From assembly GCF_022846255.1 (NCBI RefSeq), contig NZ_AP025682.1: DNA of 64,000 nt. One strand, given 5' to 3'. This DNA comes from Escherichia coli (GTDB taxonomy: Bacteria > Pseudomonadota > Gammaproteobacteria > Enterobacterales > Enterobacteriaceae). The translations under genes were made by a program, and so were the position numbers. Of the stretch, positions 2,201 through 42,495 are shown piece after piece. The stretch's first letter is position 1. The number at the start of each line of letters is the position of its first letter. The notes beneath the pieces were generated by a model. That model made no database searches, was not told the origin of the DNA, and saw only the letters and a list, made by a program, of their open reading frames with translations.

Positions 2201-4375
2201 ATGCTGCGATGGACACGCTGTATTATGCTAACATTTATCTCTGGGGCTGCTTTTGCGGCTCCAGAGATAAATGTTGAGCATAAAGAATCATTACCTGATT
2301 TAGGTAGTCAGGCCGCACAACAAGAAGAACAAACCAACAAGGGGAAATCGCTAAAAGAGCGTGGTGCCGATTACGTCATTAACTCCGCCACGCAAGGGTT
2401 TGAAAACTTGGCCCCTGAGGCGCTGGAATCTCAGGCCAGAAGCTATCTGCAAAGTCAAATCACCTCAACCGCACAATCTTATATTGAAGACACACTCTCT
2501 CCCTACGGTAAGGTCCGTTCGAACCTCTCCATTGGTCAGGGCGGCGATCTGGATGGCAGTTCCATCGATTATTTTGTTCCCTGGTACGATAATCAAACCA
2601 CTGTTTATTTCAGCCAATTTTCTGCACAACGAAAAGAAGATCGTACGATCGGGAATATTGGGCTTGGTGTAAGACATAATTTTGATAAATGGTTGTTGGG
2701 TGGAAATATATTTTATGATTATGATTTTACCCGTGGGCATCGCCGTTTAGGTTTAGGTGCCGAAGCGTGGACTGATTATTTAAAATTCTCTGGCAACTAT
2801 TATCACCCGCTTTCTGACTGGAAAGACTCCGAAGATTTCGATTTTTATGAGGAGCGTCCTGCGCGCGGCTGGGATATTCGCGCCGAAGCCTGGCTTCCCG
2901 CTTATCCGCAGCTTGGTGGTAAAATTGTTTTCGAACAGTATTACGGTAATGAAGTCGCGCTTTTTGGCACTGATAATCTGGAGAAAGATCCCTACGCGGT
3001 AACGCTTGGACTGAATTATCAACCAGTGCCGTTACTGACAGTTGGGACGGACTATAAAGCGGGGACCGGAGATAACAGTGATGTCAGCATTAATGCCACT
3101 CTTAATTATCAGTTTGGCGTTCCGCTAAAAGATCAATTGGATAGCGATAAAGTGAAAGCGGCGCACTCGCTGATGGGCAGCCGTCTTGATTTCGTTGAGC
3201 GTAATAACTTTATTGTTCTGGAATACAAAGAAAAAGATCCGCTTGATGTCACCCTGTGGTTGAAAGCGGATGCCACCAACGAGCACCCTGAGTGCGTCAT
3301 TAAGGACACTCCCGAAGAAGCCGTCGGTCTGGAAAAATGTAAGTGGACCATTAACGCACTCATTAATCATCACTACAAAATCGTTGCGGCCTCCTGGCAG
3401 GCGAAAAACAATGCTGCCCGCACGCTGGTGATGCCGGTTATCAAAGAGAATACTCTGACAGAGGGTAACAATAACCACCGGAACCTGGTGCTGCCTGCCT
3501 GGCAGTACAGTTCCGATCAAGCCGAACAAGAAAAACTCAATACCTGGCGGGTTCGTCTGGCGCTGGAAGATGAAAAAGGCAATCGGCAGAGCTCCGGTGT
3601 GGTGGAAATCACCGTTCAACAGGACCGTAAAATTGAGCTCATCGTTAACAACATCGCCAATGTACCGGATAAGAGCAATCACAGCCACGAAGCCAGCGCA
3701 CAGGCCGATGGTGTAGATGGTGTAGTGATGGATCTCGATATTACTGATAGCTTTGGCGACAACACTGACCGCAACGGTAATGTCTTGCCGCAGGATAATC
3801 TCAACCCGCAGTTGTTTGATGCCAACGATAAAAAAGTGACGCTGACGAATAACCCCTGCACTACCGAGACTCCCTGTGTCTTTATCGCCAAACAAGATAA
3901 AGAAAAGGGGACCGTTACGCTCTCCAGTACGTTGCCTGGCACCTTCCGTTGGAAGGCGAAAGCTGCTCCCTATGATGACAGTAACTATGTTGACGTAACG
4001 TTCCTGGGTTCTGACATCGGCGGGCTGAATGCCTTTATCTATCGTGTTGGTGCGGCTAAGCCCGTGAATCTTATCGGCAATAAAGAACCGTTGCCTCTCA
4101 ATAGCAGCTATCGCTTTGTGTTGTGGCGTGACGCTAACAAAGACGGCGTGTTCCAGCTATCAGAGAAACTCACTGAAGAGGAGATGAAACAGTATGACTA
4201 TCAGTGGGAATTCACGGGACATAGCGTGAATGGCAATACCGGTGCGCAAGCCAATACCACTAACGTCGATATAGAGATCCCGGCAACGAACAAGGAAGCG
4301 GCAGCGAAGTTTAGTGCCCAGGTAACCGATGGCGTGCAGGGATACGGTTTGCAGGTCAATTACAGCAAGAAATAG
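2201..4375 (+). CDS. sinH: Inverse autotransporter adhesin of the intimin/invasin family (SinH-like), 724 aa
   Basis: N-terminal signal peptide (…FISGAAFA/APE). Residues ~110-330 show intimin/invasin beta-barrel-type sequence (DYFVPWYD, LGLGAEAWTDYLKFSGNYYHPLSDW, GWDIRAEAWLP, LGLNYQP), followed by an Ig-like passenger. RBS GGAAAAGG upstream. Confidence 0.85.
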   Translation: MLRWTRCIMLTFISGAAFAAPEINVEHKESLPDLGSQAAQQEEQTNKGKSLKERGADYVINSATQGFENLAPEALESQARSYLQSQITSTAQSYIEDTLSPYGKVRSNLSIGQGGDLDGSSIDYFVPWYDNQTTVYFSQFSAQRKEDRTIGNIGLGVRHNFDKWLLGGNIFYDYDFTRGHRRLGLGAEAWTDYLKFSGNYYHPLSDWKDSEDFDFYEERPARGWDIRAEAWLPAYPQLGGKIVFEQYYGNEVALFGTDNLEKDPYAVTLGLNYQPVPLLTVGTDYKAGTGDNSDVSINATLNYQFGVPLKDQLDSDKVKAAHSLMGSRLDFVERNNFIVLEYKEKDPLDVTLWLKADATNEHPECVIKDTPEEAVGLEKCKWTINALINHHYKIVAASWQAKNNAARTLVMPVIKENTLTEGNNNHRNLVLPAWQYSSDQAEQEKLNTWRVRLALEDEKGNRQSSGVVEITVQQDRKIELIVNNIANVPDKSNHSHEASAQADGVDGVVMDLDITDSFGDNTDRNGNVLPQDNLNPQLFDANDKKVTLTNNPCTTETPCVFIAKQDKEKGTVTLSSTLPGTFRWKAKAAPYDDSNYVDVTFLGSDIGGLNAFIYRVGAAKPVNLIGNKEPLPLNSSYRFVLWRDANKDGVFQLSEKLTEEEMKQYDYQWEFTGHSVNGNTGAQANTTNVDIEIPATNKEAAAKFSAQVTDGVQGYGLQVNYSKK

Positions 4376-4430
4376 GATCAGCGCCATGGCTGATCGGGCC
4401 ACCGCTGAATGTTAACCAAGGAGAGTGTTT

Positions 4431-5423
4431 ATGAAACCTCATATGAAACGTGGCCTGACAAAAGTCGCGCTGGCGCTGATGCTGGCTGGATACTGTGCCG
4501 TGCCAGCCGCTATGGCGGAAGATGCCGCCTGGGTAGACAGTGGGACGACCGCTGAATTCGAAGGGACCATACCCTGGCTTTATCGCGAGGGGGGGAATGC
4601 CACGATTAACTCGGATGATGCGGATCACATCAAAGTAACGTCTGATGGTAAAGGTACTCGTCCTTCAGGTAGCGAGACGGATAAACGCCTTTACTCAGGA
4701 GATACCATCACGTTGGGGTGGGATATCGGCGATACCGAAGGGGATATCGACGATGGTCCAGATGGTATTGATGCGAAAACGACGGCGACTATCAAATGGT
4801 ACAGCTACAGCGATAATGCGGGTGGCGGTAAAACGGAGCTGACCGCAGCGGCGGGTAAGACGAGTTATAAACTCACTGATAACGAACGTGGGCGCTATAT
4901 CGGTGTTGAAATCCAGCCTATCACTCAGACCGGTAATCCCTTCCAGGGAACGTCGCTGACTCTGCTGGATATCTCAACGGCCAGCGGTGGCGGCAGCGAT
5001 ACGGACAATGTTGATCCTGGCCCGGTTGTGAACCAGAACCTGAAAGTCGCCATCTTCGAGAAAGGCACCAGTACCAACCTTATCGGTGGTAATACAGCCA
5101 TTGCGCTTAACAAAACGTATGTGGCCAAACTGTACTCGGATGAAAACCAGAACGATAAGTACGATGCGGGTACGGATGTGGACGTTACCGCTAACTATGA
5201 CTTTGCATGGGTCTTTAACGGTAACAGTAAACAACTTGCTGCGGCGGGTGGTATTGCCAACGCCAGCTTCGATAACAATGACATTGTTATTCCGCAAACT
5301 AACGAACAAGCAAGAGCCAGCCTTAACGGTAGTGACCGTAATGGTAAGACCGGTCTTGCAATCCCGGCAAACGGCGACGGCGTCCAGGGCTATACGCTGT
5401 CTATCATTTACAAACACCACTAA
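4431..5423 (+). CDS. sinI: Secreted protein of unknown function (SinI-like by position), ~330 aa
   Basis: AAGGAG 7 nt upstream of the ATG at 4431 (ORF track starts at the GTG at 4425). Signal peptide (…AVPAAMA/EDAAW). C-terminal DGVQGY motif shared with SinH; N-terminal W…G.T.EF.GT.P motif shared with the giant protein. Symbol assigned from synteny only. Confidence 0.7.
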   Translation: MKPHMKRGLTKVALALMLAGYCAVPAAMAEDAAWVDSGTTAEFEGTIPWLYREGGNATINSDDADHIKVTSDGKGTRPSGSETDKRLYSGDTITLGWDIGDTEGDIDDGPDGIDAKTTATIKWYSYSDNAGGGKTELTAAAGKTSYKLTDNERGRYIGVEIQPITQTGNPFQGTSLTLLDISTASGGGSDTDNVDPGPVVNQNLKVAIFEKGTSTNLIGGNTAIALNKTYVAKLYSDENQNDKYDAGTDVDVTANYDFAWVFNGNSKQLAAAGGIANASFDNNDIVIPQTNEQARASLNGSDRNGKTGLAIPANGDGVQGYTLSIIYKHH

Positions 5424-5431
5424 TGCGCACC

Positions 5432-5462
5432 AACAGCATTCCCGTATGGGAATGCTGTTTTC
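5432..5462 (+). terminator. Intrinsic terminator or attenuator between the sinI-like gene and the giant gene
   Basis: Inverted repeat ACAGCATTCCC / GGGAATGCTGT with loop GTAT, followed by TTTTCC, 9 nt after the stop codon. Confidence 0.45.
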
Positions 5463-5533
5463 CGCCTGTTTTGCTTAGCGACGCGTTAAGCAAAACGGGT
5501 TGACGTTTTGTTTATCATGCTGGAGTTTTCTAC

Positions 5534-8500
5534 ATGTCGGTATGTCTGAAACCAGGAAAAATCATTGTGCTTCTGGGCATGTTGGCAGCCTTTATGCTGT
5601 CTGACTTTGCACGGGCAGGAGTGGAATGGCAGACATATCCTGGTTCTACAGGCGAGTTTAACGGTACAGTTCCTATTGCCGATAGCGCCAGCGTACCCGT
5701 CTATCAGGGAAGCGTTCAGCTTGATCCTGCTGCATCTCATGATGTGGCGTTTTCTGCTAAACCGAATGAATTTAGCGTTGACGATGACGCTGCTAACCTG
5801 ATAGTCGCTAATCCTCAGGACAGTGAAGGCGACCAGTTTTCCACACCACCTGCGCTGCGCTGGGAAAAACAAACGCCGCCGACCGTTAGCCTGGTGTGGG
5901 CCGATGCCGCCACGCCGGATACGCCGCTTAATCCACAGCCTACCGCCAACCGTAGCTTTTGCGCTCAGGGCCTGGCCGGGCGTTCGCTGGTGGCCTGGCC
6001 GCAGATTGATGCGCAGCAGACCATTCCACTGCTTTATCTGCTGACTTCGACCGGTTATCCCTATGAGGGGACGGTGGCGCTGGCTGACCAGAAAGTGACG
6101 CTGAACATCGCGCCCGCGCAGGGCGATTTAATCTCGGTGAGCGCCAGTGGTTATAACGAAACGATCGCGGCGGCGAAAACCACCGTTGGTGACACCATCA
6201 CGCTAACTGTTACCACCAAAGACTGTCAGGGCAACGTTGCGGGCAATATTCCTTTTATTATCAAACGACAGGATGCGAAAAACCGCCAGGATGCGGTGAA
6301 TAACACCGCACCGGTGGTGCTGGATAGCACCGAGTTAACGACGACCGCGACCGAGTATCACGGCACATCGGATGCCAACGGTACGGCAACCATCACGGTG
6401 ACCCAACCTAATGGGCCCGGCGTCAAAACGCCGCTGGTGGTCAGCATCTCCGGCATTGCGCAAACCAGTGAGACGGCGGTTATTTTTACCGTACTCACCA
6501 GCCCGGACGTGGCGCAGGCCACGATGTGGGGCCATATGGCGGAAACGGTTGAGGCTCATGGCTACACGTTCAGCAGGCCAAAACTGGCGGCAGAAGTCAG
6601 CAATGAAAATGCCACGGTCGTCGATCACAACGAAACCTGGTCAACTTTCACCTGGAGCGGGGCAGACAGCCATTGCACCGTGCTGCCGGGCATGCGCCAT
6701 TTCGGCGCACTGGCGACCGTTATTCCCACCACGGTACAGACTGTCCTCGGCTGGCCGATGCAGGATGATTATTACTGGACATCGCTGGCGGGCACTACCG
6801 GGCAGCACCATGCGGCGGATGTCTCTAACCGTGCTGAAGCGCAAAAGCCGGATAGCACCACGTTTCTTGTAAGCTGCGTGGACAAACCCGCGCCTGACGT
6901 CGAACCGAAAATCGTCCTTACGCCAGAAAACTATGATGATACGGCACAGGCGATGAAAGCGAAGGTGGGTGAGGACGCCACGATGCGTCTGACGATCACC
7001 GACAATAAAAACAACGATCAACCGCTGGCGTATTACTACTTCTCGCTGCATCTGGATGACGGCGTTAACCGCAAAAATCAAACCGATCCTGCCTGGGAAG
7101 CTCATCCGGTACAGATTGCTGGCGGCAGTAATTTTCGCCAGGTCGACGCACATACCTATGAGGGCATGACTGATGTCAACGGTCAGGCTTCGCTAACCCT
7201 GAGCCAGCCTGGTGGCGCGGGCGTTAAAACTCACATTACGGCGAAAATGCGCAGCGATTTTAACGCCACGGATGCCAAAGATGTGATTTTTACCGTAATC
7301 ACCAGCCCGGACAGCGACAAAGCGCGGATGTGGGGCCATATGCGCGGCATTATTGAGTCCGGCAGTCTGTATAAACGCCCGTTGCTGGCGGATGAAACCG
7401 AGCATGAACTGGGAACAGTGCGGGAAAACAACGAAGACTGGGCGTTGTACGATCAAAACACCAGTATGCAGGCGGAATGCGGGGTGGGTCATATACCGCG
7501 CCAGAGCTCACTGGAAAGCCTGTTTTCAGCCCATCCCGGTAACGCGATTGGCACTGAGTATGGCTGGCCCACCGCACAACAGAGCTACCTAAGCGCGGTG
7601 GAGCAAGAAACGCATTCATCGGTGAATCTGGGGAACGGGAGCGTCGACAGCTATTCCGGCTTTAAGCAGAATTACCTCTCCTGTTCGGGTAATGAGATGG
7701 TAGCGAATGTTGAAGTCAGCACCGATCATGATGTGTCTGTTGGCACCCAAGCGCAAGCCAAAGTGGGTGACACCATCGTAATGACCGTGCGTACGATTAA
7801 CTCGCTAAATAATTCCCCGGTACCCTTTAGCGCATTCACCATTACCAAAGGTATGGGATATAACCGAGCGGGACAGGTGAGCGGGTTTGATGACCCGAGT
7901 AGCGGCGCAATCACGATGGATAACTCGCAATATGGTACATCACAGCCATCGATGGTTTATGCGGGAACAACCGATGTCCGGGGCGTGGCGACGGTCGAGA
8001 TTAAACAACCGCAGGGCGTCGGGCTAAGAACGGCGCTGAGCGTAACGCCGGTAAATTCCTACCTGCCGAATACCGTTAACTACAGCGTTATTTTTACCAC
8101 CCCAACCAGCCCGGATGTTTCCGGCGCGCAGATGTGGGGCCATATGGATGAAACGATTACCGTTGATTCATCAACCTTTAGCCGGCCTAAGCTGGCGGCG
8201 GAAATCGCCAGCCCGGACGGAACCCTGACCGAAAATAACGAAATCTGGGCGCGCGTGAGCCAGGCCAATACGTCCAGTACCAGCAAAGGCGGCTGCGGCA
8301 CCAATATGCTGCCGCGTCGCTCCCAGCTAAGCGCGTTGTATAGCGCCAACAGTGGTAACGCGGTGCAAACGACGCACGGCTGGCCAACGCAACGTCAGCC
8401 CTACTGGAGCAGCTCACCGGCGGATGTGACACCGCACTTTTTCACGATAGCGCTGAACGATGGCGCGCAGGCCATCGGCGGCAATACGCCGGTTTACGTC

Positions 8501-11500
8501 AGTTGCCTGACGACGGCGAACAAGCCTGCCAGCAGCATTACGCTGGAGGTGGTTGATAAAGCGCAATGGAATGCGGGGAATAACGCGGCAAAGCTGAAAA
8601 AAGGTGAGACACTACAGGTTAAAGTGACAGTAAAAGACTCGCAGGGTAACGCGTTAGCGGATATGCCATTTACCCTCAGTCGCGGTGATGGCTATACCCG
8701 TAGCGGCGAAAAACATATTGCCGGTAGCGGCGATGCGCTGGTAGCGCCCGTGGTGGTCAATGGCGGGTTGGCAGATGAAACAACGTTGAATGACACTGCA
8801 ACGGTGTATACCGCCATGACCGGCAGCGACGGCAGCAAAATCCTTAATATTACCCGCCCGGATACCCACGGCACCAAAACGGCGCTGACGGCAACGCTTT
8901 ACTCCGATGCGACGAAAAAAGACAGCCTGGACACGATCTTTACGGTGGTTACCAGCCCGGATAGCAGCCAGGCGAAAATGTGGGGGCATATGCCGGAAAC
9001 GGTGACGGCTGAGGACGGTACGGTCTTTAAACGCCCGCGGTTACTGAAGGAACTGAGCAGTCAGACTGGGCGAACATCAACGCTTGAAGACAACGAAAAC
9101 TGGGCGTTGTTTAACATTAATTATGCGAGCTCTTCCACGACGTATAGTGGCTGTGGAACCAACTATATTCCAACTCAGGCTGGTCTGACGTCACTGTTTG
9201 CTAATAATGCGGGCAACACCATGAAAACCGTGCAGGGCTGGCCGGTGGCAACGCGCTATTTGTCCAACACGTCCGACAATGGCAGCATGGAGCAGCGTAA
9301 CTACAAGGCGGTCGATCTCAGCAATGGCACGAGTGCGGCAGTGTCATCAACGGCGCTGCAACTGCTGACCTGTCAGACTACACCGGTAACCACGGTGAGC
9401 CAAATCCTGCTGGAAGCGGCAGATCCGGCGACGCTGGATACCACCTATAACGTGGTAAAAGCGAAAAAAGGCGAAGAATCCGTGGTGCGCGTCACCACCA
9501 AAGATGCACAAGGCAACCTGGTGGGCAATACGGCATTTATCCTGACGCGTGCCAACAGCGTGAGTCGGGCTAATGCATCAGCGACGATGAGCGTGGGCTC
9601 GTTGACGGTGACGGATGCCTGGGGCAATACGCGAAATAATTTCCAGTCGACAAGTGAAACCATTTACGGCGTGACCGGTGCTGATGGGGCAACGACATTG
9701 ACCCTGAAACAGGATAACAGTACCGGGTTAAGAACCGATCTCACGGCAAAACTGGATACGTCCAGCAGCGTCAAGGCAACGCTACCGGTGGTCTTTACCG
9801 TCGTGACCAGCCCGGATTCGCCAAAAGCGAATTTTTGGGGACATATGGCCGAAACGGTGGCGGCCTCCGATGGCTCGGTTTATAAGCGACCATTGCTGTT
9901 TGGCGAACTGACCAACAACTATGCGCGATATAGCACGCTTGAGAACGGAGAAAGCTGGGCAAGATTCACCTCGACTCAGTCGATTGACACCAGCATGAAT
10001 GGGTGTGGTACAGATTATATGCCGACGCTGGATGGTCTGAAGTCTTTGTATGACGCCAATAGCGGTAATGCGATGAATACGGTGCAGGGATGGCCGGTAA
10101 ATACGAGTTATCTCACCAACACCCCGAGTGATACACAAGCAGGGAGCCGTTACTACAATGTGGTGCAACTGAATTCTGGCGCGGTTTCGCAAATCGTATC
10201 CACAGTGCTGGCGTTACAAACCTGCCGCACGACGCCGTTGACGACTGCCAGCCAGATTACGCTGGAAGCCGCGGATCCTGCGCAGTTTGTCAGCATTGAT
10301 AGTACGCTTAGCGCTGTCAAAGCGAAGAAGGGCGATGAGGTGTCGATCCGCATTTCGACTAAAGATGCGCAGGGGAATTTAGTCGGCAATACGCCGTTTG
10401 CCCTGAAACACGCGAACTCGATCAATCGTCAAAATGTGACGTCATCGCAGAAAGTGTCGGTCACGACTGCAGCGGGTACGACGGTGGATACCAGTGCAGC
10501 GACCATCCTGTATGGCGTAACCGGGCCAGACGGAACGACGACGATGGCGCTCCGACAGGATGCGTCCACCGGACTACGAACCGACTTTTATGCCTTGTTG
10601 AACGATACCGGCGTGTCGTCGGGCACCTTGCCGGTGATCTTTACCGTTATCACCAGCCCGGACACGCCGCTGGCGGCCAACTGGGGCCATATGGCGGAAA
10701 CCTTTACCAGCAGCGAAGGCGTTACCTTCAAGCGGCCTTTCCTCAAAGCTGAACTTTCCGGCGGTACGGCGAAAACGGTCAATAATGAAGTCTGGTCGCT
10801 CCTGACATCGACTGAGAAAGCGGACGCCAGCAAGGCCGGGTGTGATGAGGCGTATCAACCGCAGACGACAGACATGCAGGGGCTGTATGCCGATTATCCT
10901 AACGGCCAACTGGCAACGGTGCTCGGCTTGCCGACTGCCGCCGGGAACTGGTGGGATTATGACATGATGGCGGCAGTGAGCAATAGCTGGAGTTACCAGG
11001 TGTTTTCGCCGGGTAATGGCCAAACGATTCAGGCATCGTCCGGCTATACGGCGGTAGTGATGTGTCTGGTAAAACCACATACGGAAGCGGCCACAATAGA
11101 GATTACCTCGACGGCGCAGGACGCAGCAAAATCGGCCAGTAATGGTGGACGACCGAGCGCCGTAGCGAAGAAAGGTGAGACGATTCCGTTGACGGTGACC
11201 GTGCGTGATAGCGCCGGGAACCCGATGCCATATGCCGACTTTACCCTCTCGCGTGAAACGACGCTGGATCGCTCGAAAACAGCTGTTAACAGTGCGGTGG
11301 ACGATCTTACCGTAACGGCATTGGTACCGGCGAACAGGGATAGCGTGTTGACAGCGAGCGGAGCAAAAACTCTCGCAACGACGGGCAGCGATGGCACTGC
11401 CACCTTTGAGGTGGGGCAGTACTCTACGACCGGGCTGGCGACGCCGTTAACCGTGACGCTGGCGCGTGATACGACGAAAGCTGCCACGCTGGATGTTATC

Positions 11501-13615
11501 TACACGGTGATCACCAGCCCGGATTCGCCGAGTGCGAAATTCTGGGGGCATATGCCAGACACCTTTACCAGCTCGGCGGGCGTCACCTTCAAACGGCCGT
11601 TGCTGAAAGCCGAAGCGACGTCAGGCTCATCAATTAGCACTAACGGTAACGGTGAAGTGTGGGCGTATATGAGCAACTTGCAAAATTTAACATCGACAGA
11701 TTGCCCGCTGGAGTATCAGCCGCGCAGCAACGAGCTGTTGGATTTATATAGCGATCACCCGAACGGCGCGATAATGACTGACCTGGGGCTACCGATATAT
11801 GCAGGCAAGTGGTGGGCTTATGATATGGTCATGCCGGATTTATATACGTGGCAGTATCAGACTGTCAGCCTGAGCACCGGAGATATCGCGAAGAGCTCGT
11901 CAACCAACGCGCTGATGCTTTGCCTGACGAAGCCGCATCCGGCAGGCGTCAGCGTAATGTTGACGTCATCCGCAATGGATAACGCCAGAAGCCTCAGTAA
12001 TGGCGGGCGACCTAGCGCGTCAGTGAAAAAAGGCAACCCACTGCCAATTGTAGTGACGGTCAAAGATCGTGATGACAACCCGCTGGCGGGAGAGGCCGTG
12101 ACGCTCAGGCGTGGTTCAGCGATGAGCCGTTCAGGAGCAGTAGTGGGCACGCCGGCAAATGCAATGACGTTGACAGAGTTGACACCCGTGTCGGCGGAGT
12201 TTTCTCTGGCCGCACACGATACGCAATGGCAAGGTTTCACCGGCAGTGATGGTACGGTCACTTTCAATGTTGAACAGCCTGAGACCATCGGCCTGGCCAT
12301 CCCGTTCACCGCTATACTGGCGCGAGATGTGGCAACCACAACTGTCCTTGATGCGATCTTTACCGTCGTCACCAGCCCGGATTCCACAATGGCGACCTAC
12401 TGGGGTCATATGCCGGATACGGTCACGGCGGAAAACGGCGTGGTCTTTGAACGGCCTAAATTGTTGAAAGAGTTGCCGTCGAGCACCGGAATTAGTCAGG
12501 TGACGGATAACAATGAAGTCTGGCCGCTGTTTAAGGCAACGCAAAGGGAAGATAGCAGCCTCAGTCCTTGTGAAGCGGCGCGTCGGCCATTGAGCGATGA
12601 TTTAGAATCGCTCTACGCGCGCTATCCGGGGAACACGCTGACGACACAAATCGGTTGGTCTACGCGGTATACATGGTGGGCGCTGGATAACTGGCAGGGG
12701 AATGCCCAGGTTGTTAGTCTGAGTGATGGCTTAAAGTGGTCGACGGTGAATACCGCGTATCAAGGGTGTCTGGTTAACCCGCGCGCGACGGTCTCCAGCG
12801 TCACGCTGACATCAACGGCGCTGGATGACGCCACACAGGCGGCGACGGTGAAAAAAGGCGACGCCGCGCCCATTGTCGTTACCGTAAAAGACAGCGCCGG
12901 GAAGCCGGTGCCAAATATCGCTTTTACCCTAAAACGCGGTGAGGCCGTGCCACGTAACAGCGGGGCGACGCTGTATGGCGATGTGGATGCGATGGACGAT
13001 TTGGCCGTGCAACCTTCATCCGGTGCGGCAGTCACGTTGGCTGACAGCGGAAATACCATCGACGGAGTCACGGGAGCGGACGGTACGGCAAGCTTTACCG
13101 TTCGTCAGGATAATACGCCAGGATATAAAACGCCGTTGACGGTGACGCTAACGGATAACGCCACCATAACGGCGACGCTGGACACGATTTTCACCGTGCC
13201 GACCAGCCCGAATGTCGCCACGGCGTATTTCTGGGGTCATATGGCGGATACCGCCACGGTAAGTGGCAAGACGCTGCATCGCCCGCTATTAAAATCGGAG
13301 TTGCCGTCAGGCGCTACCGCAGCAGCAACGCCTGATGTAAATAATGAAACCTGGGCGCTGGCGCATGTTATGGATTCCTCTAAATGGGATGTCGCGCAGC
13401 AGTGCGGCAGTATGAATAACGTGCCGAGCAGTGCCGAATTACAAACATTACACTCCGGCTTTAGCACATTGGGATGGCCGTCCTCGATAAGCTTCCCGTA
13501 TTTATCTACTGATAAGGCTGGGTCGTTCTATTGTGGTGTTGATGAAGGCTCTGGCAGTCTCAACTGTGGCATTCAGCCTGCGAAAACGCCGGGGTTTGCA
13601 ACCTGTTTCCAATAA
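5534..13615 (+). CDS. ratA: Giant secreted Ig-like repeat protein (RatA-like), 2693 aa
   Basis: GGAG 6 nt upstream of the ATG. N-terminal signal peptide (…[11 protein letters not shown]), no lipobox Cys. Nine tandem ~280-aa modules, each with a Big_1-like segment, an (I/V)FTV.TSPD…WGHM…RP.L motif and a Cys-pair segment. No beta-barrel-like region recognised. Confidence 0.85.
6170..13500 (+). repeat. In-frame tandem array of nine coding modules inside the giant gene (period ~800-860 nt)
   Basis: The TSPD/WGHM motif recurs at about nt 6500, 7300, 8110, 8950, 9810, 10650, 11515, 12370 and 13205. DNA copies are diverged, with pairs 4/5 and 6/7 most alike. Confidence 0.75.
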
Positions 13616-13645: not shown

Positions 13646-15197
<1,552 letters not shown>

Positions 15198-20329: not shown

Positions 20330-22573
20330 ATGAAACTGAATGCAACTTATATAAAAATACGTGATAAATGGTGGGGGCTTCCGCTGTTCCTGCCTTCTTT
20401 AATCTTGCCCATTTTCGCCCACATTAATACTTTCGCGCATATTTCTTCCGGTGAAGTTTTTCTCTTTTATCTGCCACTGGCATTGATGATCAGCATGATG
20501 ATGTTTTTCAGCTGGGCGGCATTGCCAGGGATCGCCTTAGGGATTTTTGTCCGCAAATATGCAGAGCTGGGTTTTTACGAAACGCTCTCATTAACGGCTA
20601 ATTTTATTATCATTATCATTCTCTGTTGGGGCGGTTACAGGGTTTTTACCCCCCGGCGTAACAACGTTTCACATGGTGATAGCCGTTTAATTTCCCAGCG
20701 ACTATTCTGGCAGATTGTGTTTCCTGCAACGCTGTTTCTGATACTTTTCCAGTTTGCTGCGTTTGTTGGATTACTGGCGAGCAGAGAAAATCTGGTCGGC
20801 GTCATGCCCTTTAACCTCGGGACCTTAATCAATTATCAGGCCTTGCTGGTGGGTAATCTGATTGGTGTCCCGCTGTGCTACTTCATCATTCGGGTGGTGC
20901 GAAATCCGTTTTATTTACGTAGCTATTATTCGCAATTAAAACAGCAGGTTGATGCCAAAGTTACCAAAAAAGAGTTCGCAATCTGGCTACTGGCATTAGG
21001 TGCTTTATTGTTGCTGTTATGCATGCCGTTAAATGAAAAAAGCACGATTTTTAGCACCAATTACACCTTGTCATTATTGCTGCCCCTGATGATGTGGGGA
21101 GCGATGCGCTATGGTTATAAGCTGATTTCATTGCTCTGGGCGGTCGTGTTGATGATCAGCATCCACAGCTATCAAAATTACATTCCCATTTATCCTGGCT
21201 ATACCACGCAGCTGACCATAACCTCCTCCAGTTATCTGGTATTCTCTTTTATTGTCAATTATATGGCTGTACTGGCAACCCGTCAGCGAGCGGTAGTCAG
21301 ACGCATTCAGCGGCTTGCGTATGTGGACCCGGTGGTTCATCTGCCAAATGTTCGCGCCCTGAATCGCGCGTTACGTGATGCCCCCTGGTCTGCGCTTTGT
21401 TATTTACGCATCCCTGGCATGGAAATGCTGGTTAAGAATTATGGCATCATGCTGCGGATTCAATACAAGCAAAAACTTTCTCACTGGCTGTCACCATTGT
21501 TGGAACCGGGTGAAGATGTTTATCAGCTTTCGGGTAACGATCTCGCGCTGCGGCTGAATACAGAATCGCACCAGGAGCGCATTACCGCACTGGATAGCCA
21601 TCTCAAGCAATTTCGTTTCTTTTGGGATGGAATGCCGATGCAACCGCAGATTGGCGTCAGTTACTGCTATGTGCGCTCGCCAGTGAATCATATCTACCTG
21701 CTGCTGGGAGAGCTAAATACAGTGGCCGAACTTTCCATCGTGACCAACGCCCCGGAAAATATGCAGCGTCGCGGAGCAATGTATTTGCAACGCGAATTGA
21801 AAGATAAAGTCGCGATGATGAATCGGCTACAGCGGGCGCTGGAACACAACCATTTTTTCCTGATGGCCCAGCCGATTACCGGTATGCGTGGTGATGTCTA
21901 CCATGAAATTCTTCTGCGCATGAAAGGTGAGAATGATGAACTGATCAGCCCCGATAGCTTCTTACCGGTCGCGCACGAATTTGGTTTATCGTCGAGTATC
22001 GACATGTGGGTCATTGAGCATACGCTGCAATTTATGGCTGAAAACAGAGCGAAGATGCCCGCTCACCGTTTTGCTATTAATCTGTCTCCAACCTCGGTAT
22101 GTCAGGCTCGTTTTCCTGTTGAAGTCAGTCAGCTGCTGGCTAAATATCAGATTGAAGCGTGGCAACTTATTTTTGAAGTCACCGAAAGTAATGCTCTGAC
22201 CAATGTTAAGCAGGCGCAAATCACCTTGCAGCATCTTCAGGAATTAGGCTGCCAGATTGCGATTGATGATTTCGGCACCGGCTACGCCAGCTATGCGCGG
22301 CTTAAAAATGTGAATGCCGATCTGCTTAAAATTGACGGCAGTTTTATCCGCAATATTGTGTCAAATAGTCTGGATTATCAGATAGTGGCGTCGATTTGCC
22401 ACCTGGCGCGAATGAAGAAAATGCGGGTAGTGGCAGAGTACGTTGAAAACGAAGAGATCCGCGAGGCGGTGCTCTCTTTGGGGATCGATTATATGCAGGG
22501 TTATCTTATTGGTAAGCCGCAACCGTTAATTGATACGCTGAATGAAATCGAACCCATTCGCGAAAGTGCCTGA
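20330..22573 (+). CDS. pdeF: c-di-GMP phosphodiesterase with MASE1 membrane domain, degenerate GGDEF and EAL domains
   Basis: 747 aa: polytopic N-terminus, EAL-type motifs (EVTES, DDFGTGYAS) in the C-terminus; matches YfgF/PdeF by position and length. Confidence 0.9.
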   Translation: MKLNATYIKIRDKWWGLPLFLPSLILPIFAHINTFAHISSGEVFLFYLPLALMISMMMFFSWAALPGIALGIFVRKYAELGFYETLSLTANFIIIIILCWGGYRVFTPRRNNVSHGDSRLISQRLFWQIVFPATLFLILFQFAAFVGLLASRENLVGVMPFNLGTLINYQALLVGNLIGVPLCYFIIRVVRNPFYLRSYYSQLKQQVDAKVTKKEFAIWLLALGALLLLLCMPLNEKSTIFSTNYTLSLLLPLMMWGAMRYGYKLISLLWAVVLMISIHSYQNYIPIYPGYTTQLTITSSSYLVFSFIVNYMAVLATRQRAVVRRIQRLAYVDPVVHLPNVRALNRALRDAPWSALCYLRIPGMEMLVKNYGIMLRIQYKQKLSHWLSPLLEPGEDVYQLSGNDLALRLNTESHQERITALDSHLKQFRFFWDGMPMQPQIGVSYCYVRSPVNHIYLLLGELNTVAELSIVTNAPENMQRRGAMYLQRELKDKVAMMNRLQRALEHNHFFLMAQPITGMRGDVYHEILLRMKGENDELISPDSFLPVAHEFGLSSSIDMWVIEHTLQFMAENRAKMPAHRFAINLSPTSVCQARFPVEVSQLLAKYQIEAWQLIFEVTESNALTNVKQAQITLQHLQELGCQIAIDDFGTGYASYARLKNVNADLLKIDGSFIRNIVSNSLDYQIVASICHLARMKKMRVVAEYVENEEIREAVLSLGIDYMQGYLIGKPQPLIDTLNEIEPIRESA

Positions 22574-26394: not shown

Positions 26395-27032
26395 TTACTC
26401 GTCGGCAGCGTAGCCCTGCGGCGGCAGACGTTGACCATCCAGCCACGCGGCGTTTTCGTGCATTTTCAGACGACCATCGGCAAACCAGCTAATCACCAGT
26501 GGATAAATAGCGTGTTCCTGGGTTTGCACGCGGGCGGTGATGTCATCTTCCGTATCACCAGCAAATACCGGGACTTTCGCCTGTAAAATAACCGGGCCAC
26601 CGTCCAGTTCATCGGTGACGAAATGCACCGATGTACCGTGCTCCTCATCGCCATTTTCCAGCGCCTGACGATGGGTGTGTAATCCGGGATATTTCGGCAG
26701 CAGAGAAGGGTGAATGTTCAGCAAACGCCCGGCATAGTGGGAGACAAACGCCGGGCTGAGAATGCGCATAAAACCAGCCAGCACGACCACATCGGGTGCG
26801 TACATGTCGATTTCATGAATCAACTCCCGGTCATAGGCTTCACGACTGTCAAACGCGCTGGTGATGAGCGTATGCGTTGCGATACCCGCCTGGCGGGCGC
26901 GTTCAAGGCCGAACGCGTCGGCCTTATTGCTGAAAACTGCCCGTACGGTGCCTTTAATTTTGTTGGTTTTGCAGGCGTCAATAATTGCCTGCAAATTACT
27001 TCCGTTGCCGGAAATAAGCACCACAATATTCA

Positions 27033-27033
<1 letters not shown>
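26395..27033 (-). CDS. purN: Phosphoribosylglycinamide formyltransferase
   Basis: 212-aa ORF; its ATG overlaps the purM stop (TAATG). Confidence 0.95.
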
Positions 27034-28088
<1,055 letters not shown>

Positions 28089-28133
28089 TTACTTGCGGTA
28101 GAAAAATAAAATTCGGCGCAATTCTAACAGGGA

Positions 28134-28149
28134 AAGCAAACGTTTGCGA
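28134..28149 (-). promoter_or_regulatory. PurR operator (pur box) upstream of purMN
   Basis: AAGCAAACGTTTGCGA, a near-palindromic match to the PurR box ACGCAAACGTTTGCGT, 64 nt upstream of the purM start. Confidence 0.5.
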
Positions 28150-28394
28150 GACTGCTTTACACAACCTTTTTGCACGTCTTTTCCCCAGGCGCGCGGCGAA
28201 AGAATACTTGTACCAGGGCAAAGGATCGTTTTCGGATGGAATAATCTTCTTCCATAACCATTTGAATATAAAATAACTTTATCTCAAACCGTTATCATTT
28301 TGACTAAAGTCAACGAAAATAATATTGCCGCCTTGAAGAAAGGAGGTATAATCCGTCGATTTTTTTTGTGGCTGCCCCTCAAAGGAGAAAGAGT

Positions 28395-29021
28395 ATGAAG
28401 ATCGTGGAAGTCAAACACCCACTCGTCAAACACAAGCTGGGACTGATGCGTGAGCAAGATATCAGCACCAAGCGCTTTCGCGAACTCGCTTCCGAAGTGG
28501 GTAGCCTGCTGACTTACGAAGCGACCGCCGACCTCGAAACGGAAAAAGTCACTATCGAAGGCTGGAACGGCCCGGTAGAAATCGACCAGATCAAAGGTAA
28601 GAAAATTACCGTTGTGCCAATTCTGCGTGCGGGTCTTGGGATGATGGACGGTGTGCTGGAAAACGTTCCGAGTGCGCGCATCAGTGTCGTCGGTATGTAC
28701 CGTAATGAAGAAACGCTGGAGCCGGTACCGTACTTCCAGAAACTGGTTTCTAACATCGATGAGCGTATGGCGCTGATCGTTGACCCAATGCTGGCAACCG
28801 GTGGTTCCGTTATCGCGACCATCGACCTGCTGAAAAAAGCGGGCTGCAGCAGCATCAAAGTTCTGGTGCTGGTAGCTGCACCAGAAGGTATCGCTGCGCT
28901 GGAAAAAGCGCACCCGGACGTCGAACTGTATACTGCATCGATTGACCAGGGACTGAACGAGCACGGATACATTATTCCGGGCCTCGGCGATGCCGGTGAC
29001 AAAATCTTTGGTACGAAATAA
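28395..29021 (+). CDS. upp: Uracil phosphoribosyltransferase
   Basis: AAAGGAGAAAGAGT-ATG; translation [20 protein letters not shown]… (208 aa). The ORF-track start at 28368 is upstream of the RBS. Confidence 0.95.
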
Positions 29022-29106: not shown

Positions 29107-30396
29107 ATGACGCGCCGTGCTATCGGGGTGAGTGAAAGACCGCCACTTTTACAGACAATCCCGCTTAGTTTGCAACATTTGTTCGCCATGTTTGGTGCAA
29201 CCGTCCTGGTGCCCGTCTTATTTCATATTAACCCGGCGACTGTACTGTTATTTAACGGTATAGGAACACTGCTGTATCTCTTCATCTGTAAAGGGAAAAT
29301 TCCGGCTTATCTTGGTTCCAGCTTTGCCTTTATTTCACCGGTATTGTTACTGTTGCCGTTAGGGTATGAAGTCGCGCTGGGCGGCTTTATTATGTGCGGC
29401 GTGCTGTTCTGCCTGGTTTCTTTTATCGTGAAGAAAGCGGGGACCGGCTGGCTGGACGTGCTGTTTCCACCTGCGGCAATGGGCGCAATCGTTGCCGTCA
29501 TCGGTCTGGAGCTGGCGGGCGTAGCTGCCGGTATGGCGGGTTTACTCCCGGCTGAAGGGCAAACGCCAGACTCCAAAACCATCATCATCTCTATTACCAC
29601 CCTGGCGGTCACGGTTTTAGGTTCCGTGCTGTTTCGTGGTTTCCTGGCAATTATCCCGATTTTAATTGGCGTGCTGGTGGGGTACGCGCTCTCTTTCGCA
29701 ATGGGAATTGTCGATACCACGCCGATTATTAATGCTCACTGGTTTGCGCTGCCGACCCTCTATACGCCGCGCTTCGAGTGGTTTGCCATTCTGACTATTC
29801 TGCCAGCGGCGTTAGTGGTTATTGCCGAACACGTAGGGCACCTGGTCGTAACGGCTAATATCGTCAAAAAAGATCTGCTGCGCGATCCAGGTCTGCACCG
29901 TTCGATGTTTGCTAACGGCTTGTCGACCGTGATCTCCGGCTTCTTTGGCTCCACGCCAAACACCACTTACGGAGAAAACATTGGCGTGATGGCGATCACC
30001 CGTGTTTACAGTACCTGGGTTATCGGCGGTGCGGCGATTTTCGCTATCCTGCTTTCCTGCGTCGGTAAACTGGCTGCTGCTATCCAGATGATCCCATTGC
30101 CGGTGATGGGCGGCGTTTCGCTGCTGCTTTACGGTGTCATCGGTGCTTCCGGTATTCGTGTGTTGATCGAATCGAAAGTGGATTACAACAAAGCACAGAA
30201 CCTGATCCTGACTTCCGTTATTTTGATCATCGGCGTCAGTGGCGCGAAGGTAAACATTGGCGCGGCGGAGCTGAAAGGTATGGCGCTGGCGACCATCGTC
30301 GGTATCGGCTTAAGTTTGATCTTCAAACTGATTAGTATGCTGCGCCCTGAAGAAGTGGTGCTGGACGCAGAAGACGCGGATATAACAGACAAATAA
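29107..30396 (+). CDS. uraA: Uracil:H+ symporter
   Basis: GAGGA upstream of the ATG at 29107; translation [20 protein letters not shown]… (429 aa), polytopic. Confidence 0.95.
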
Positions 30397-30490: not shown

Positions 30491-31192
30491 CTGAACACAC
30501 CGGCACAGCTCTCTTTGCCACTTTATCTTCCTGACGACGAAACCTTTGCAAGTTTCTGGCCGGGGGATAACTCCTCTTTACTGGCCGCGCTGCAAAACGT
30601 GCTGCGTCAGGAACATAGCGGTTACATCTATCTCTGGGCACGCGAAGGCGCGGGGCGCAGCCATCTGCTGCACGCGGCTTGCGCGGAATTGTCGCAGCGT
30701 GGCGATGCGGTGGGCTATGTCCCGCTGGATAAACGCACCTGGTTTGTTCCGGAAGTGCTCGACGGTATGGAGCATTTGTCGCTGGTCTGTATTGACAACA
30801 TTGAGTGTATTGCCGGCGATGAGTTGTGGGAGATGGCGATTTTCGATCTCTACAATCGAATTCTGGAATCGGGCAAAACACGGTTGTTGATCACCGGCGA
30901 TCGTCCACCGCGGCAGTTGAATCTGGGATTACCGGATCTCGCGTCGCGTCTCGACTGGGGGCAGATCTACAAATTGCAGCCACTTTCTGATGAAGATAAG
31001 TTGCAGGCGCTACAGTTACGCGCGCGTTTGCGTGGTTTTGAACTGCCGGAAGATGTGGGGCGTTTCTTGCTGAAGCGGCTCGACAGAGAAATGCGCACGT
31101 TGTTTATGACGCTGGATCAGCTGGATCGTGCGTCGATTACCGCGCAACGCAAGCTGACCATTCCGTTTGTGAAAGAAATTCTGAAGTTGTAG
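30491..31192 (+). CDS. hda: DnaA-inactivating (RIDA) protein Hda
   Basis: AAA+ protein. Start placed at the CTG at 30491 (233 aa, GAGGT RBS) following the reported CUG start of hda; the ORF track begins at the upstream ATG 30446. Confidence 0.8.
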
Positions 31193-31206: not shown

Positions 31207-31300
31207 GTCGGATGCGGCGCGAACGCCTTATCCGACCTACGCGAAGTTAATCCATAGTATTCGTAGGCCGGATAAGACGCGGCAAGCGTCGCATCCGGCA
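31207..31300. repeat. Pair of REP elements (BIME-like) between hda and yfgD
   Basis: GTCGGATGCGGCGCGAACGCCTTATCCGACCTAC and the inverted copy GTAGGCCGGATAAGACGCGGCAAGCGTCGCATCCGGCA. Confidence 0.6.
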
Positions 31301-33385: not shown

Positions 33386-34447
33386 ATGCTCGAAATGTTG
33401 ATGCAATGGTATCGCCGCCGTTTTAGCGACCCGGAAGCGATTGCCTTGCTGGTTATTTTGGTTGCTGGTTTTGGCATTATCTTTTTCTTTAGCGGCCTAC
33501 TCGCGCCGTTGCTGGTGGCTATTGTGCTGGCCTATTTACTGGAATGGCCGACTGTCCGCCTGCAGTCTATTGGCTGTTCCCGCCCTTGGGCGACATCTAT
33601 CGTGCTGATCCTGTTTGTGGGCATCCTGCTACTGATGGCGTTCGTGGTACTGCCTATCGCCTGGCAGCAGGGCATCTACTTAATCCGCGATATGCCAGGG
33701 ATGCTTAATAAACTTTCTGATTTTGCTGCCACGTTACCGCGCCGGTATCCGGCATTAATGGATGCGGGGATTATTGATGCAATGGCTGAAAATATGCGTA
33801 GCCGGATGCTGACCATGGGCGATTCGGTGGTGAAAATTTCCCTCGCCTCGTTGGTCGGTTTGCTGACCATTGCCGTCTATCTGGTGCTGGTGCCATTGAT
33901 GGTCTTCTTCCTGCTGAAAGACAAAGAGCAGATGCTGAACGCCGTTCGCCGGGTGCTGCCGCGCAACCGTGGACTGGCAGGACAGGTGTGGAAGGAGATG
34001 AATCAACAAATCACCAACTATATCCGCGGCAAAGTGCTGGAGATGATCGTGGTAGGGATCGCCACCTGGCTGGGGTTCTTGCTCTTTGGGCTGAACTATT
34101 CGCTGCTGCTGGCGGTGCTGGTCGGCTTCTCGGTACTTATTCCGTACATTGGCGCATTTGTGGTGACCATTCCGGTGGTTGGCGTGGCGCTATTCCAGTT
34201 TGGTGCTGGCACGGAATTCTGGAGCTGCTTCGCGGTGTATCTGATTATTCAGGCGCTGGACGGCAACCTGTTAGTACCGGTGTTGTTTTCCGAAGCGGTT
34301 AACCTGCATCCTCTGGTGATTATTTTATCGGTGGTGATCTTCGGTGGTTTGTGGGGATTCTGGGGCGTATTCTTCGCTATTCCATTGGCGACGCTGATCA
34401 AAGCCGTGATTCACGCCTGGCCTGATGGGCAAATCGCGCAAGACTGA
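33386..34447 (+). CDS. perM: AI-2E family inner-membrane transporter (PerM/YfgO)
   Basis: 353-aa polytopic membrane protein; K-12 synteny. Confidence 0.85.
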   Translation: MLEMLMQWYRRRFSDPEAIALLVILVAGFGIIFFFSGLLAPLLVAIVLAYLLEWPTVRLQSIGCSRPWATSIVLILFVGILLLMAFVVLPIAWQQGIYLIRDMPGMLNKLSDFAATLPRRYPALMDAGIIDAMAENMRSRMLTMGDSVVKISLASLVGLLTIAVYLVLVPLMVFFLLKDKEQMLNAVRRVLPRNRGLAGQVWKEMNQQITNYIRGKVLEMIVVGIATWLGFLLFGLNYSLLLAVLVGFSVLIPYIGAFVVTIPVVGVALFQFGAGTEFWSCFAVYLIIQALDGNLLVPVLFSEAVNLHPLVIILSVVIFGGLWGFWGVFFAIPLATLIKAVIHAWPDGQIAQD

Positions 34448-34545
34448 CCTTCAGCGAAAAAATTTGAAACGAGTGTTGCAGGGCAGTGAGACGATTTGAG
34501 ATGTGCTGGCCGCAAGCGCAGCCAGCACGGAATGGAGCAAAGTAA

Positions 34546-35016
34546 TCAGGCGTGTTCTTTCAGCCAGTTCAGCACAACGTCGTGGTGATTGCTGGTTTTG
34601 AAATCGTCAAAAACATGTTCGATTTTGCCATCAGCGTCAATCAGGAAGCTGATGCGATGAATACCATTGTAGGTTTTGCCCATGAAGGACTTTTCACCCC
34701 AGACGCCGAATTGTTCGCACACCTGGTGGTCCTCATCAGACAGGAGCGTAAAGTTAAGCAGCTCTTTTTCCGCAAAACGGGAGAGTTTTTCGGGTTTATC
34801 GGTGCTGATACCCAGCACATCAACGCCCGCTTTTTTCAACTCATCCATGTTATCGCGTAAGCCGCAGGCCTGTACGGTACAGCCGGGGGTCATGGCTTTC
34901 GGGTAGAAATAAACCAGAACACGCTGTCCCTGGAAGTCGGTCAAATTAACTTGTTCTCCGTCTTGATCCGGCAAGCTAAATTTCGGTGCGATATCACCGG
35001 CTTTCAGTGGATTCAT
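34546..35016 (-). CDS. bcp: Thiol peroxidase / peroxiredoxin Bcp
   Basis: 156 aa with the peroxiredoxin active-site region (…YPKAMTPGCTVQAC…). Confidence 0.95.
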   Translation of the reverse strand: MNPLKAGDIAPKFSLPDQDGEQVNLTDFQGQRVLVYFYPKAMTPGCTVQACGLRDNMDELKKAGVDVLGISTDKPEKLSRFAEKELLNFTLLSDEDHQVCEQFGVWGEKSFMGKTYNGIHRISFLIDADGKIEHVFDDFKTSNHHDVVLNWLKEHA

Positions 35017-37668: not shown

Positions 37669-37696
37669 CAGGGCTGGAGTCATCCGGCCCTTTTTT
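37669..37696 (+). terminator. dapA-bamC terminator
   Basis: GGGCTGGA / TCCGGCCC hairpin (one G-U pair) followed by TTTTTT. Confidence 0.55.
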
Positions 37697-37706
37697 CTGA
37701 TATGAT

Positions 37707-37722
37707 ACGCAAACGTGTGCGT
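37707..37722 (+). promoter_or_regulatory. PurR operator (pur box) upstream of purC
   Basis: ACGCAAACGTGTGCGT, 15 of 16 matches to the PurR consensus. Confidence 0.55.
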
Positions 37723-37767
37723 CGACAGAAAAACGCGATTTTAGCGGTAATTCGCACGAAATTTGTC

Positions 37768-37822
37768 TGTCGGACGTAGGTCGGATAAGGCGTTTACGCC
37801 GCATCCGACAAAACATCCGGCA
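37768..37822. repeat. REP element in the bamC-purC spacer
   Basis: GTAGGTCGGATAAGGCGTTTACGCCGCATCCGACA, an imperfect GC-rich palindrome of the REP family. Confidence 0.5.
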
Positions 37823-37875
37823 CACCAGACAGCAAAAGATTTTAAAACGTTAATTCACACCCAGGAGTGATAAAG

Positions 37876-38589
37876 ATGCAAAAGCAAGCTGAGTTGTATC
37901 GTGGTAAAGCGAAAACCGTATACAGCACGGAAAACCCGGACCTGTTGGTGCTCGAATTCCGCAATGATACGTCAGCAGGGGATGGCGCGCGCATTGAGCA
38001 GTTTGATCGCAAAGGTATGGTGAACAACAAGTTCAACTACTTCATTATGAGCAAACTGGCTGAAGCGGGTATCCCGACTCAAATGGAGCGTCTGCTCTCC
38101 GATACCGAATGTCTGGTGAAAAAGCTGGATATGGTGCCGGTTGAGTGTGTCGTGCGTAACCGTGCTGCTGGCTCTCTGGTGAAACGTCTTGGAATCGAAG
38201 AAGGTATTGAGCTGAACCCGCCACTGTTCGATCTGTTCCTGAAAAACGACGCCATGCACGATCCGATGGTCAACGAATCTTACTGCGAAACCTTTGGCTG
38301 GGTGAGCAAAGAGAATCTGGCGCGTATGAAAGAGCTGACCTACAAAGCGAACGACGTGCTGAAAAAACTGTTCGATGATGCAGGTCTGATTCTGGTCGAC
38401 TTCAAGCTGGAGTTTGGTCTGTACAAAGGCGAAGTGGTTCTGGGCGATGAGTTCTCCCCGGACGGCAGCCGCCTGTGGGACAAAGAAACGCTGGAGAAAA
38501 TGGATAAAGACCGTTTCCGCCAGAGCCTCGGTGGCCTGATCGAAGCCTATGAAGCCGTTGCCCGCCGCCTGGGTGTACAGCTGGACTGA
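37876..38589 (+). CDS. purC: SAICAR synthetase
   Basis: AGGAG upstream of the ATG at 37876; translation [17 protein letters not shown]… (237 aa). Confidence 0.95.
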
Positions 38590-42430: not shown

Positions 42431-42495
42431 GGGTAGGTCTGATAAGACTGTATCAGGCATCATGGCCGGATGCGGCGTTAACGCCTTATCCGGCC
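42431..42495. repeat. REP elements between ypfH and ypfN
   Basis: GCCGGATGCGGCGTTAACGCCTTATCCGGCC palindrome plus an adjacent degenerate copy. Confidence 0.5.

Follow-up and report, generated by a model that had tools for sequence, protein, structure and literature searches.

Pur boxes upstream of purMN, purC and guaBA in an Escherichia coli chromosomal segment are very probably operators of the purine repressor PurR

We found that three 16-bp boxes upstream of purMN, purC and guaBA in a 64-kb stretch of Escherichia coli DNA (the window) are very probably cis-acting operators of the purine repressor PurR. PurR is a dimer of the LacI/GalR family, and its corepressors are hypoxanthine and guanine. 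The identification is based on identity to sites bound by PurR in K-12 ChIP-chip, a statistical excess of boxes in the window, their intergenic and promoter-proximal positions, and conservation. The PurR operators of purMN, purC and guaBA are already known, and a preliminary description of the window was right to rate these sites as a sanity check and not a novelty; they are textbook PurR operators. Their value is as a positive control, that is, real operators recognised from raw sequence. The purine-regulon cis-elements of the window are identical to those of K-12 and open no biological question. Small additions are the register and full length of the guaB box and a weak site in yfgO/yfgC. 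The three boxes, each very probably an operator, are:

28134-28149, minus strand: PurR box of purMN, reading TCGCAAACGTTTGCTT on the strand of purM, the same as the K-12 ChIP-chip motif
37707-37722, plus strand: PurR box of purC, ACGCAAACGTGTGCGT, the reverse complement of the K-12 ChIP-chip motif
15129-15144, plus strand: PurR box of guaBA, ATGCAATCGGTTACGC, the reverse complement of the K-12 ChIP-chip motif

The preliminary description had quoted near-consensus pur boxes for purM and purC, and both read as quoted at those coordinates (AAGCAAACGTTTGCGA at 28134-28149 and ACGCAAACGTGTGCGT at 37707-37722). It had also pointed to a weaker, half-site-like candidate near guaB at about 15130-15145. 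There is a site at this location, with its register 1 nt further left, and it is not a half-site; it is a full-length, degenerate 16-bp box with a central CG and 11 of 16 matches to the consensus. Compared to the palindromic consensus ACGCAAACGTTTGCGT, the purM box has 2 mismatches, the purC box 1 and the guaB box 5, and all three have the central CG. The core of the purM box is a perfect 12-bp palindrome, GCAAACGTTTGC. A consensus search that allowed up to 3 mismatches found 3 sites in the window, compared to 0.66 expected. The third of these, a match with 3 mismatches at 31018-31033, is inside hda; 1.6 such sites are expected per window, so this one is probably due to chance.

None of the three boxes is in coding sequence, a placement that the preliminary description had named as grounds for refutation. 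All are intergenic, ending 63 nt from the annotated GTG of purM (28070, minus strand), 153 nt from the ATG of purC (37876) and 53 nt from the ATG of guaB (15198), and these distances are those implied by K-12 coordinates. Gene annotation was carried over from E. coli strain 1105. Many complete E. coli chromosomes matched a 2.5-kb slice around the purM box at 99.9% identity, and the slice was found in 5424 of 5426 genomes. Based on gene order and strands, the window is inverted relative to the K-12 map. Its left end contains bamB-der-sinH-sinI-large adhesin and then xseA (minus strand). These are followed by guaB (ATG at 15198) and guaA, then yfgI, yfgH, yfgG, pdeF, ppx and ppk, and, beyond purN and purM, by upp (ATG at 28395), uraA, hda, arsC, bepA, yfgO, bcp, gcvR, dapA and bamC, with purC next. 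The purine genes near the purM and purC boxes are:

27033-28070, minus strand: purM coding sequence, GTG start at 28070, annotation from strain 1105
26395-27033, minus strand: purN, 3' of purM
37876-38589, plus strand: purC coding sequence, ATG at 37876, followed by ypfJ and genes through to the eut genes

We compared the boxes to the motifs under K-12 PurR ChIP-chip peaks in Table 1 of Cho et al. 2011 (PMC3159470). In that study, the purM-purN motif TCGCAAACGTTTGCTT had a log2 enrichment of 2.08 with adenine and 0.98 without, and the purC motif ACGCACACGTTTGCGT had 2.08 with adenine and 1.52 without. The guaB-guaA motif GCGTAACCGATTGCAT (0.84) and the yfgO/yfgC motif CCGGAAGCGATTGCCT (1.18) had enrichment with adenine, with no value listed without adenine (PMC3159470). 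All four motifs are unchanged in the window. That is, the three boxes upstream of purM, purC and guaB are letter-for-letter K-12 ChIP-chip motifs, bearing out the proposal that they are sites of the known PurR regulon. The K-12 operators of purMN, purC and guaBA (He et al. 1990, Meng et al. 1990, Cho et al. 2011) have the same 16-mers, the same distances to the start codons and the same neighbours.

We also scanned both strands of the window with a log-odds matrix. The matrix was made from 24 of the Table 1 K-12 motifs, none of them from the window in order to avoid circularity; the cvpA-purF motif AAGAAAACGTTTGCGT was among the training sites, which scored from 11.4 to 25.5 bits. The purC box scored 18.75 bits (p 2.8e-7), the purM box 17.07 bits (p 8.1e-7) and the guaB box 15.16 bits (p 2.6e-6), with 0.33 sites at the guaB score expected per window. 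The motif cut-off in PMC3159470 was p<1e-4. All three scores are well past this value, and the sub-threshold scores that the preliminary description gave as grounds for refutation were not found. There were five positions with at least 15.1 bits in the window, compared to 0.64 +/- 0.85 in 200 dinucleotide-preserving shuffles. Since ygfT, a paralogue of aegA, is among the PurR targets of K-12, the narQ-aegA intergenic region was also checked, and it had no match to the matrix.

A simple sigma-70 scan made just two calls: the promoter of upp and, on the minus strand that encodes xseA, a candidate. The promoters of purM, purC and guaB, which have poor -35 hexamers, were missed, and promoter assignment was based on conserved -10 blocks. 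Upstream of purM this block is:

28121-28129, minus strand: presumed extended -10 of the purM promoter (TGtTAGAAT)

The sequence on the purM strand reads ...gtcTCGCAAACGTTTGCTTtccCTGtTAGAATtgcgccg..., and the TAGAAT hexamer begins 7 nt downstream of the box. This spacing places the box in the -35/spacer region, at about -36 to -21, and mapping from K-12 coordinates would put the transcription start at about 28113. A PurR site 28 nt upstream of purM has been described, and deletion of AAACGTTTGCTT from a multicopy clone of the upp-purM intergenic region abolished the PurR-titration phenotype (PMC3266220).

The purM box is conserved well beyond E. coli. A PurM-based scan with one genome per species gave 80 loci. 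A box with at least 13.6 bits was present 53-132 nt from the start codon in 41 of the 42 loci from Enterobacterales and one Gilliamella (L002-L043). In these loci the box and CTGnTAGAAT, at fixed spacing, formed the sole conserved block upstream of purM; the 3 nt between them and the flank upstream of the box were freely variable. To judge from the aligned sequences, this pattern marks an extended -10 promoter in which the operator forms the -35/spacer region. Boxes with at least 15 bits were also found 44-76 nt upstream of purM in Pasteurellales (10 of 12 loci), Vibrionales (12 of 12) and Aeromonas (2 of 2). The same scan found no purM box in loci from Alteromonadales/Shewanella or Orbales. 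Within E. coli, the 44-mer centred on the purM box was identical in 5400 of 5423 genomes.

The upp-purM intergenic region has other recognisable elements. The upp promoter has TATAAT at 28347-28352 followed by GATTTTTTTTG, which we take to be the UTP-sensitive start-site and reiterative-transcription region. The sequence TTGACTAAAGTCAA (28300-28313) is the FNR site described in PMC3266220.

Upstream of purC, the box is between a terminator and a long leader:

37670-37691, plus strand: intrinsic terminator hairpin of bamC, from a terminator scan; its T-run abuts the purC promoter
37698-37706, plus strand: candidate extended -10 of the purC promoter (TGaTATGAT), read from the sequence, immediately 5' of the box
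37776-37809, minus strand: REP element in the purC 5' leader (37723-37875), between the operator and the start codon

With this candidate -10, the box probably lies across the transcription start, at roughly -6 to +10. The sigma-70 consensus scan called no promoter at purC, the candidate -10 was not clearly conserved in Pseudescherichia vulneris, and a literature search on the purC promoter returned nothing relevant. An identical purC box is located 153 nt before the ATG in E. albertii and 60 nt before it in P. vulneris and Escherichia sp. ESNIH1. The REP element is present in the purC leader of E. coli and E. albertii and absent from that of P. vulneris and Escherichia sp. ESNIH1. The E. coli leader is ~93 nt longer than in the latter two, another small addition. 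There are 3 copies of the REP repeat in the window (0 expected), with the others at 31210-31234 and 42468-42492.

Conservation gave partial support to the purC operator, with a box in 5 of 10 loci that contained purC. Rosenbergiella has a different, good box 63 nt upstream of purC. In Mangrovibacter, two Rahnella species, Yersinia nurmii and Acerihabitans (L021, L023, L026, L037 and L040), the 1 kb upstream of purC contained no recognisable pur box; in several of the box-less loci purC is almost directly after the bamC terminator. As far as these loci go, the purC operator is not universal even within Enterobacterales. Only 380 of 5412 E. coli genomes had an identical 44-mer centred on the purC box. 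Strains vary in the bases just 3' of the box: the polymorphisms within the 44-mer are 2-7 nt downstream of the box, and the box and candidate -10 were invariant in the window and three divergent strains.

The guaB box is next to two promoter elements:

15149-15154, plus strand: -10 hexamer TATAAT of the guaB promoter, invariant alignment columns among guaB loci
About 15102-15123: A/T-rich UP-element region of the guaB promoter, at its probable position in the window

An UP element at -59 to -38 of guaB has been described, together with a putative PurR site that overlaps the core promoter and through which PurR lowers guaB expression (PMC2885671). In agreement with this, the box is between the UP-element/-35 region and the -10, that is, in the -35/-10 spacer of PguaB. 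We drew guaB loci from metagenomes with a degenerate-codon DNA pattern and kept the 23 loci in which GuaB was at least 90% identical and enough upstream DNA was present. A box was found 50-64 nt before the ATG in 22 of the 23, with at least 12.8 bits in 21 and 9.5 bits in one. Variants of the box were AAGCAATCGGTTACGC, ATGCAACCGATTACGC, AGGCAAACGATTACGG, AGGCAATCGGTTTCGG and GCGCAACCGATTACCA. Most of their changes fall at positions 7 and 10, where the K-12 training sites are variable too. Below ~85% GuaB identity, no comparable guaB box was found in the metagenome loci. Among E. coli genomes, the 44-mer centred on the guaB box was identical in 5418 of 5420.

It is possible that the guaB box is conserved as part of the core promoter (the -35 edge and spacer of PguaB), that it is not a meaningful PurR operator, and that its likeness to a pur box is incidental. 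We consider this unlikely. The box has the lowest matrix score of the three, matches the consensus at only 11 of 16 positions at a score expected 0.33 times per window, and has the weakest ChIP enrichment of the three, just 0.84 log2 and with adenine only (PMC3159470); the PurR site of guaBA was termed "putative" in PMC2885671. The -10 and leader blocks beside the box are conserved even more strongly than the box, and because the box overlaps the core promoter, promoter constraint could explain part of its conservation. However, spacer DNA is normally unconstrained in sequence, and the variants across Enterobacterales still preserve GCAA.CG.TT.C, the pattern critical for PurR. In addition, one locus (L161) had lost the box and retained the -10 element, indicating that the box is not required for promoter function as such and that the two are separable. 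The guaB box is also under a reproducible K-12 PurR ChIP peak. Finally, a PurR-dependent decrease in guaB expression is reported, for which PMC2885671 cites Meng et al. 1990 and Davies & Drabble 1996.

We think it very improbable that the boxes are bound mainly by a LacI/GalR-family regulator other than PurR, for example RbsR or CytR. A central CG and A/T-rich half-sites are common to operators of the LacI family, and RbsR has been reported to influence purine genes. We found no support for RbsR or CytR in this analysis. The ChIP-chip experiments used tagged PurR, and occupancy increased with adenine, as expected if hypoxanthine is the corepressor (PMC3159470). Furthermore, the titration effects of the purM box were ascribed to PurR (PMC3266220).

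There is next to no chance that the boxes are fortuitous palindromes without a regulatory role: although two equally high matrix matches in coding sequence look incidental (uraA, 18.09 bits, and sinH, 17.65 bits), this reading is effectively refuted by the excess of sites over shuffled sequence, the location of all three boxes in promoter regions of purine-nucleotide genes, their identity to ChIP-bound K-12 motifs, and a deep positional conservation in which the flanks are not conserved.

We looked further at the two matches in coding sequence. On the minus strand, the match in uraA (29483-29498) reads ACGGCAACGATTGCGC, a single base away from the operator of yieG. The peptide that it encodes, GAIVAV, is invariant, and its wobble positions vary between species. 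The 16-mer, with all five codons, was unchanged in 9 of 40 species, compared to 1.8 expected. Among 425 five-codon windows of uraA, 20 were conserved equally or better, and the window with the box ranked 15th for codon identity. Conservation of this box is thus unexceptional for the gene, no separate PurR peak was reported at uraA in the K-12 ChIP-chip (PMC3159470), and we rejected the match as an operator, as it is probably an effect of chance or codon usage. The match in sinH (4320-4335, at the 3' end of the gene, 2201-4375) reads AGGTAACCGATGGCGT, which differs at a single base from AGGTAACCGATTGCGT, the intragenic operator of purB. It is inside a strain-variable adhesin gene and is probably also due to chance. 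It seems highly doubtful that either or both of these intragenic boxes are genuine purB-type PurR roadblock sites; if true, uptake of uracil would be linked to purine status through a functional site in uraA.

The preliminary description had overlooked the fourth K-12 ChIP-chip motif in the window:

33431-33446, plus strand: K-12 PurR ChIP-chip motif of yfgO/yfgC, CCGGAAGCGATTGCCT

This motif scored 13.8 bits (p 5.6e-6), a score at which 0.7 sites are expected per window. It is located 45 nt inside the yfgO/perM open reading frame, in contrast to the statement that PurR binding regions are intergenic (PMC3159470). Only E. albertii and Mangrovibacter retained the motif, the latter with one change; in other species its sequence drifts with codon wobble. 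Because of its position in the reading frame and its decay by codon wobble outside Escherichia, we do not count the motif among the conserved operators; it may be a weak PurR site specific to this lineage.

If the three boxes are PurR operators, then PurR with its corepressor would bind each 16-bp imperfect palindrome when purines are plentiful, and transcription would be repressed. In He et al. 1990, purified repressor reportedly bound every pur operator, and every operator overlapped its promoter. For purMN, repressor would be bound in the -35/spacer region, just upstream of the conserved extended -10; for guaBA, in the spacer between the -35 and the -10; and for purC, directly after the candidate extended -10, spanning the transcription start. 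Repressor bound at any of the three would block binding of RNA polymerase or formation of the open complex. The near-perfect boxes of purMN and purC would be expected to give strong repression, and the degenerate box of guaBA weak, adenine-dependent occupancy.

Occupancy by PurR has been measured on the identical K-12 sequences by ChIP-chip (PMC3159470) and, for purM, also by titration and deletion (PMC3266220). We infer from these data, and from the sequence, the exact start sites, PurR occupancy and repression in the source strain. The purR gene is located outside the 64-kb window. It was found, at a coverage of at least 80%, in 5423 of 5426 complete E. coli genomes and is very likely present in the source strain. 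Since purR is not in the window, the conclusion in the preliminary description that regulation is intact goes beyond what the operators alone indicate.

The boxes resemble other PurR operators. The purF operator ACGCAAACGTTTTCTT of the reference PurR-hypoxanthine-DNA complex is likewise a pseudo-palindrome of 16 bp, with GCAAAC half-sites around a central CpG. Relative to it, the 12-bp core is fully symmetric in the purM box, position 11 of the purC box carries one asymmetric change from T to G, and both halves of the guaB box are degenerate. The intragenic operators of purB and purR, which are of the roadblock type, belong to the same motif family. In contrast to these, the three boxes are promoter-proximal and would act on initiation rather than elongation (PMC3159470).

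The guaB leader contains an inverted repeat, GGCAATATTT...GAGATATTGCC (15160-15196), predicted to form a hairpin just 5' of the ATG (-14.4 kcal/mol, z -2.6). Both arms were near-invariant in 18 distinct Enterobacterales leaders. The hairpin could occlude the ribosome-binding region.

The boxes do not differ from those of K-12. Elsewhere the window does differ: the hyf operon is missing between yfgO and bcp, and xseA has a sinH-sinI-adhesin island next to it. The bcp gene is directly after yfgO/perM (34447-34546 is between them). In K-12, the hyf hydrogenase-4 operon and focB are located between these two genes; it is the absence of hyf and focB that leaves only ~10 kb between purM and purC. 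The cluster of sinH (an intimin-like inverse autotransporter), sinI and a 2693-aa adhesin (2201-13615) is between der and a zinc-ribbon gene on one side and xseA on the other, and is presumably an accessory island absent from K-12. Lastly, pdeF (20330-22573) is an intact 747-aa open reading frame in the window and is frameshifted in the annotation of the otherwise 99.9% identical strain 1105.
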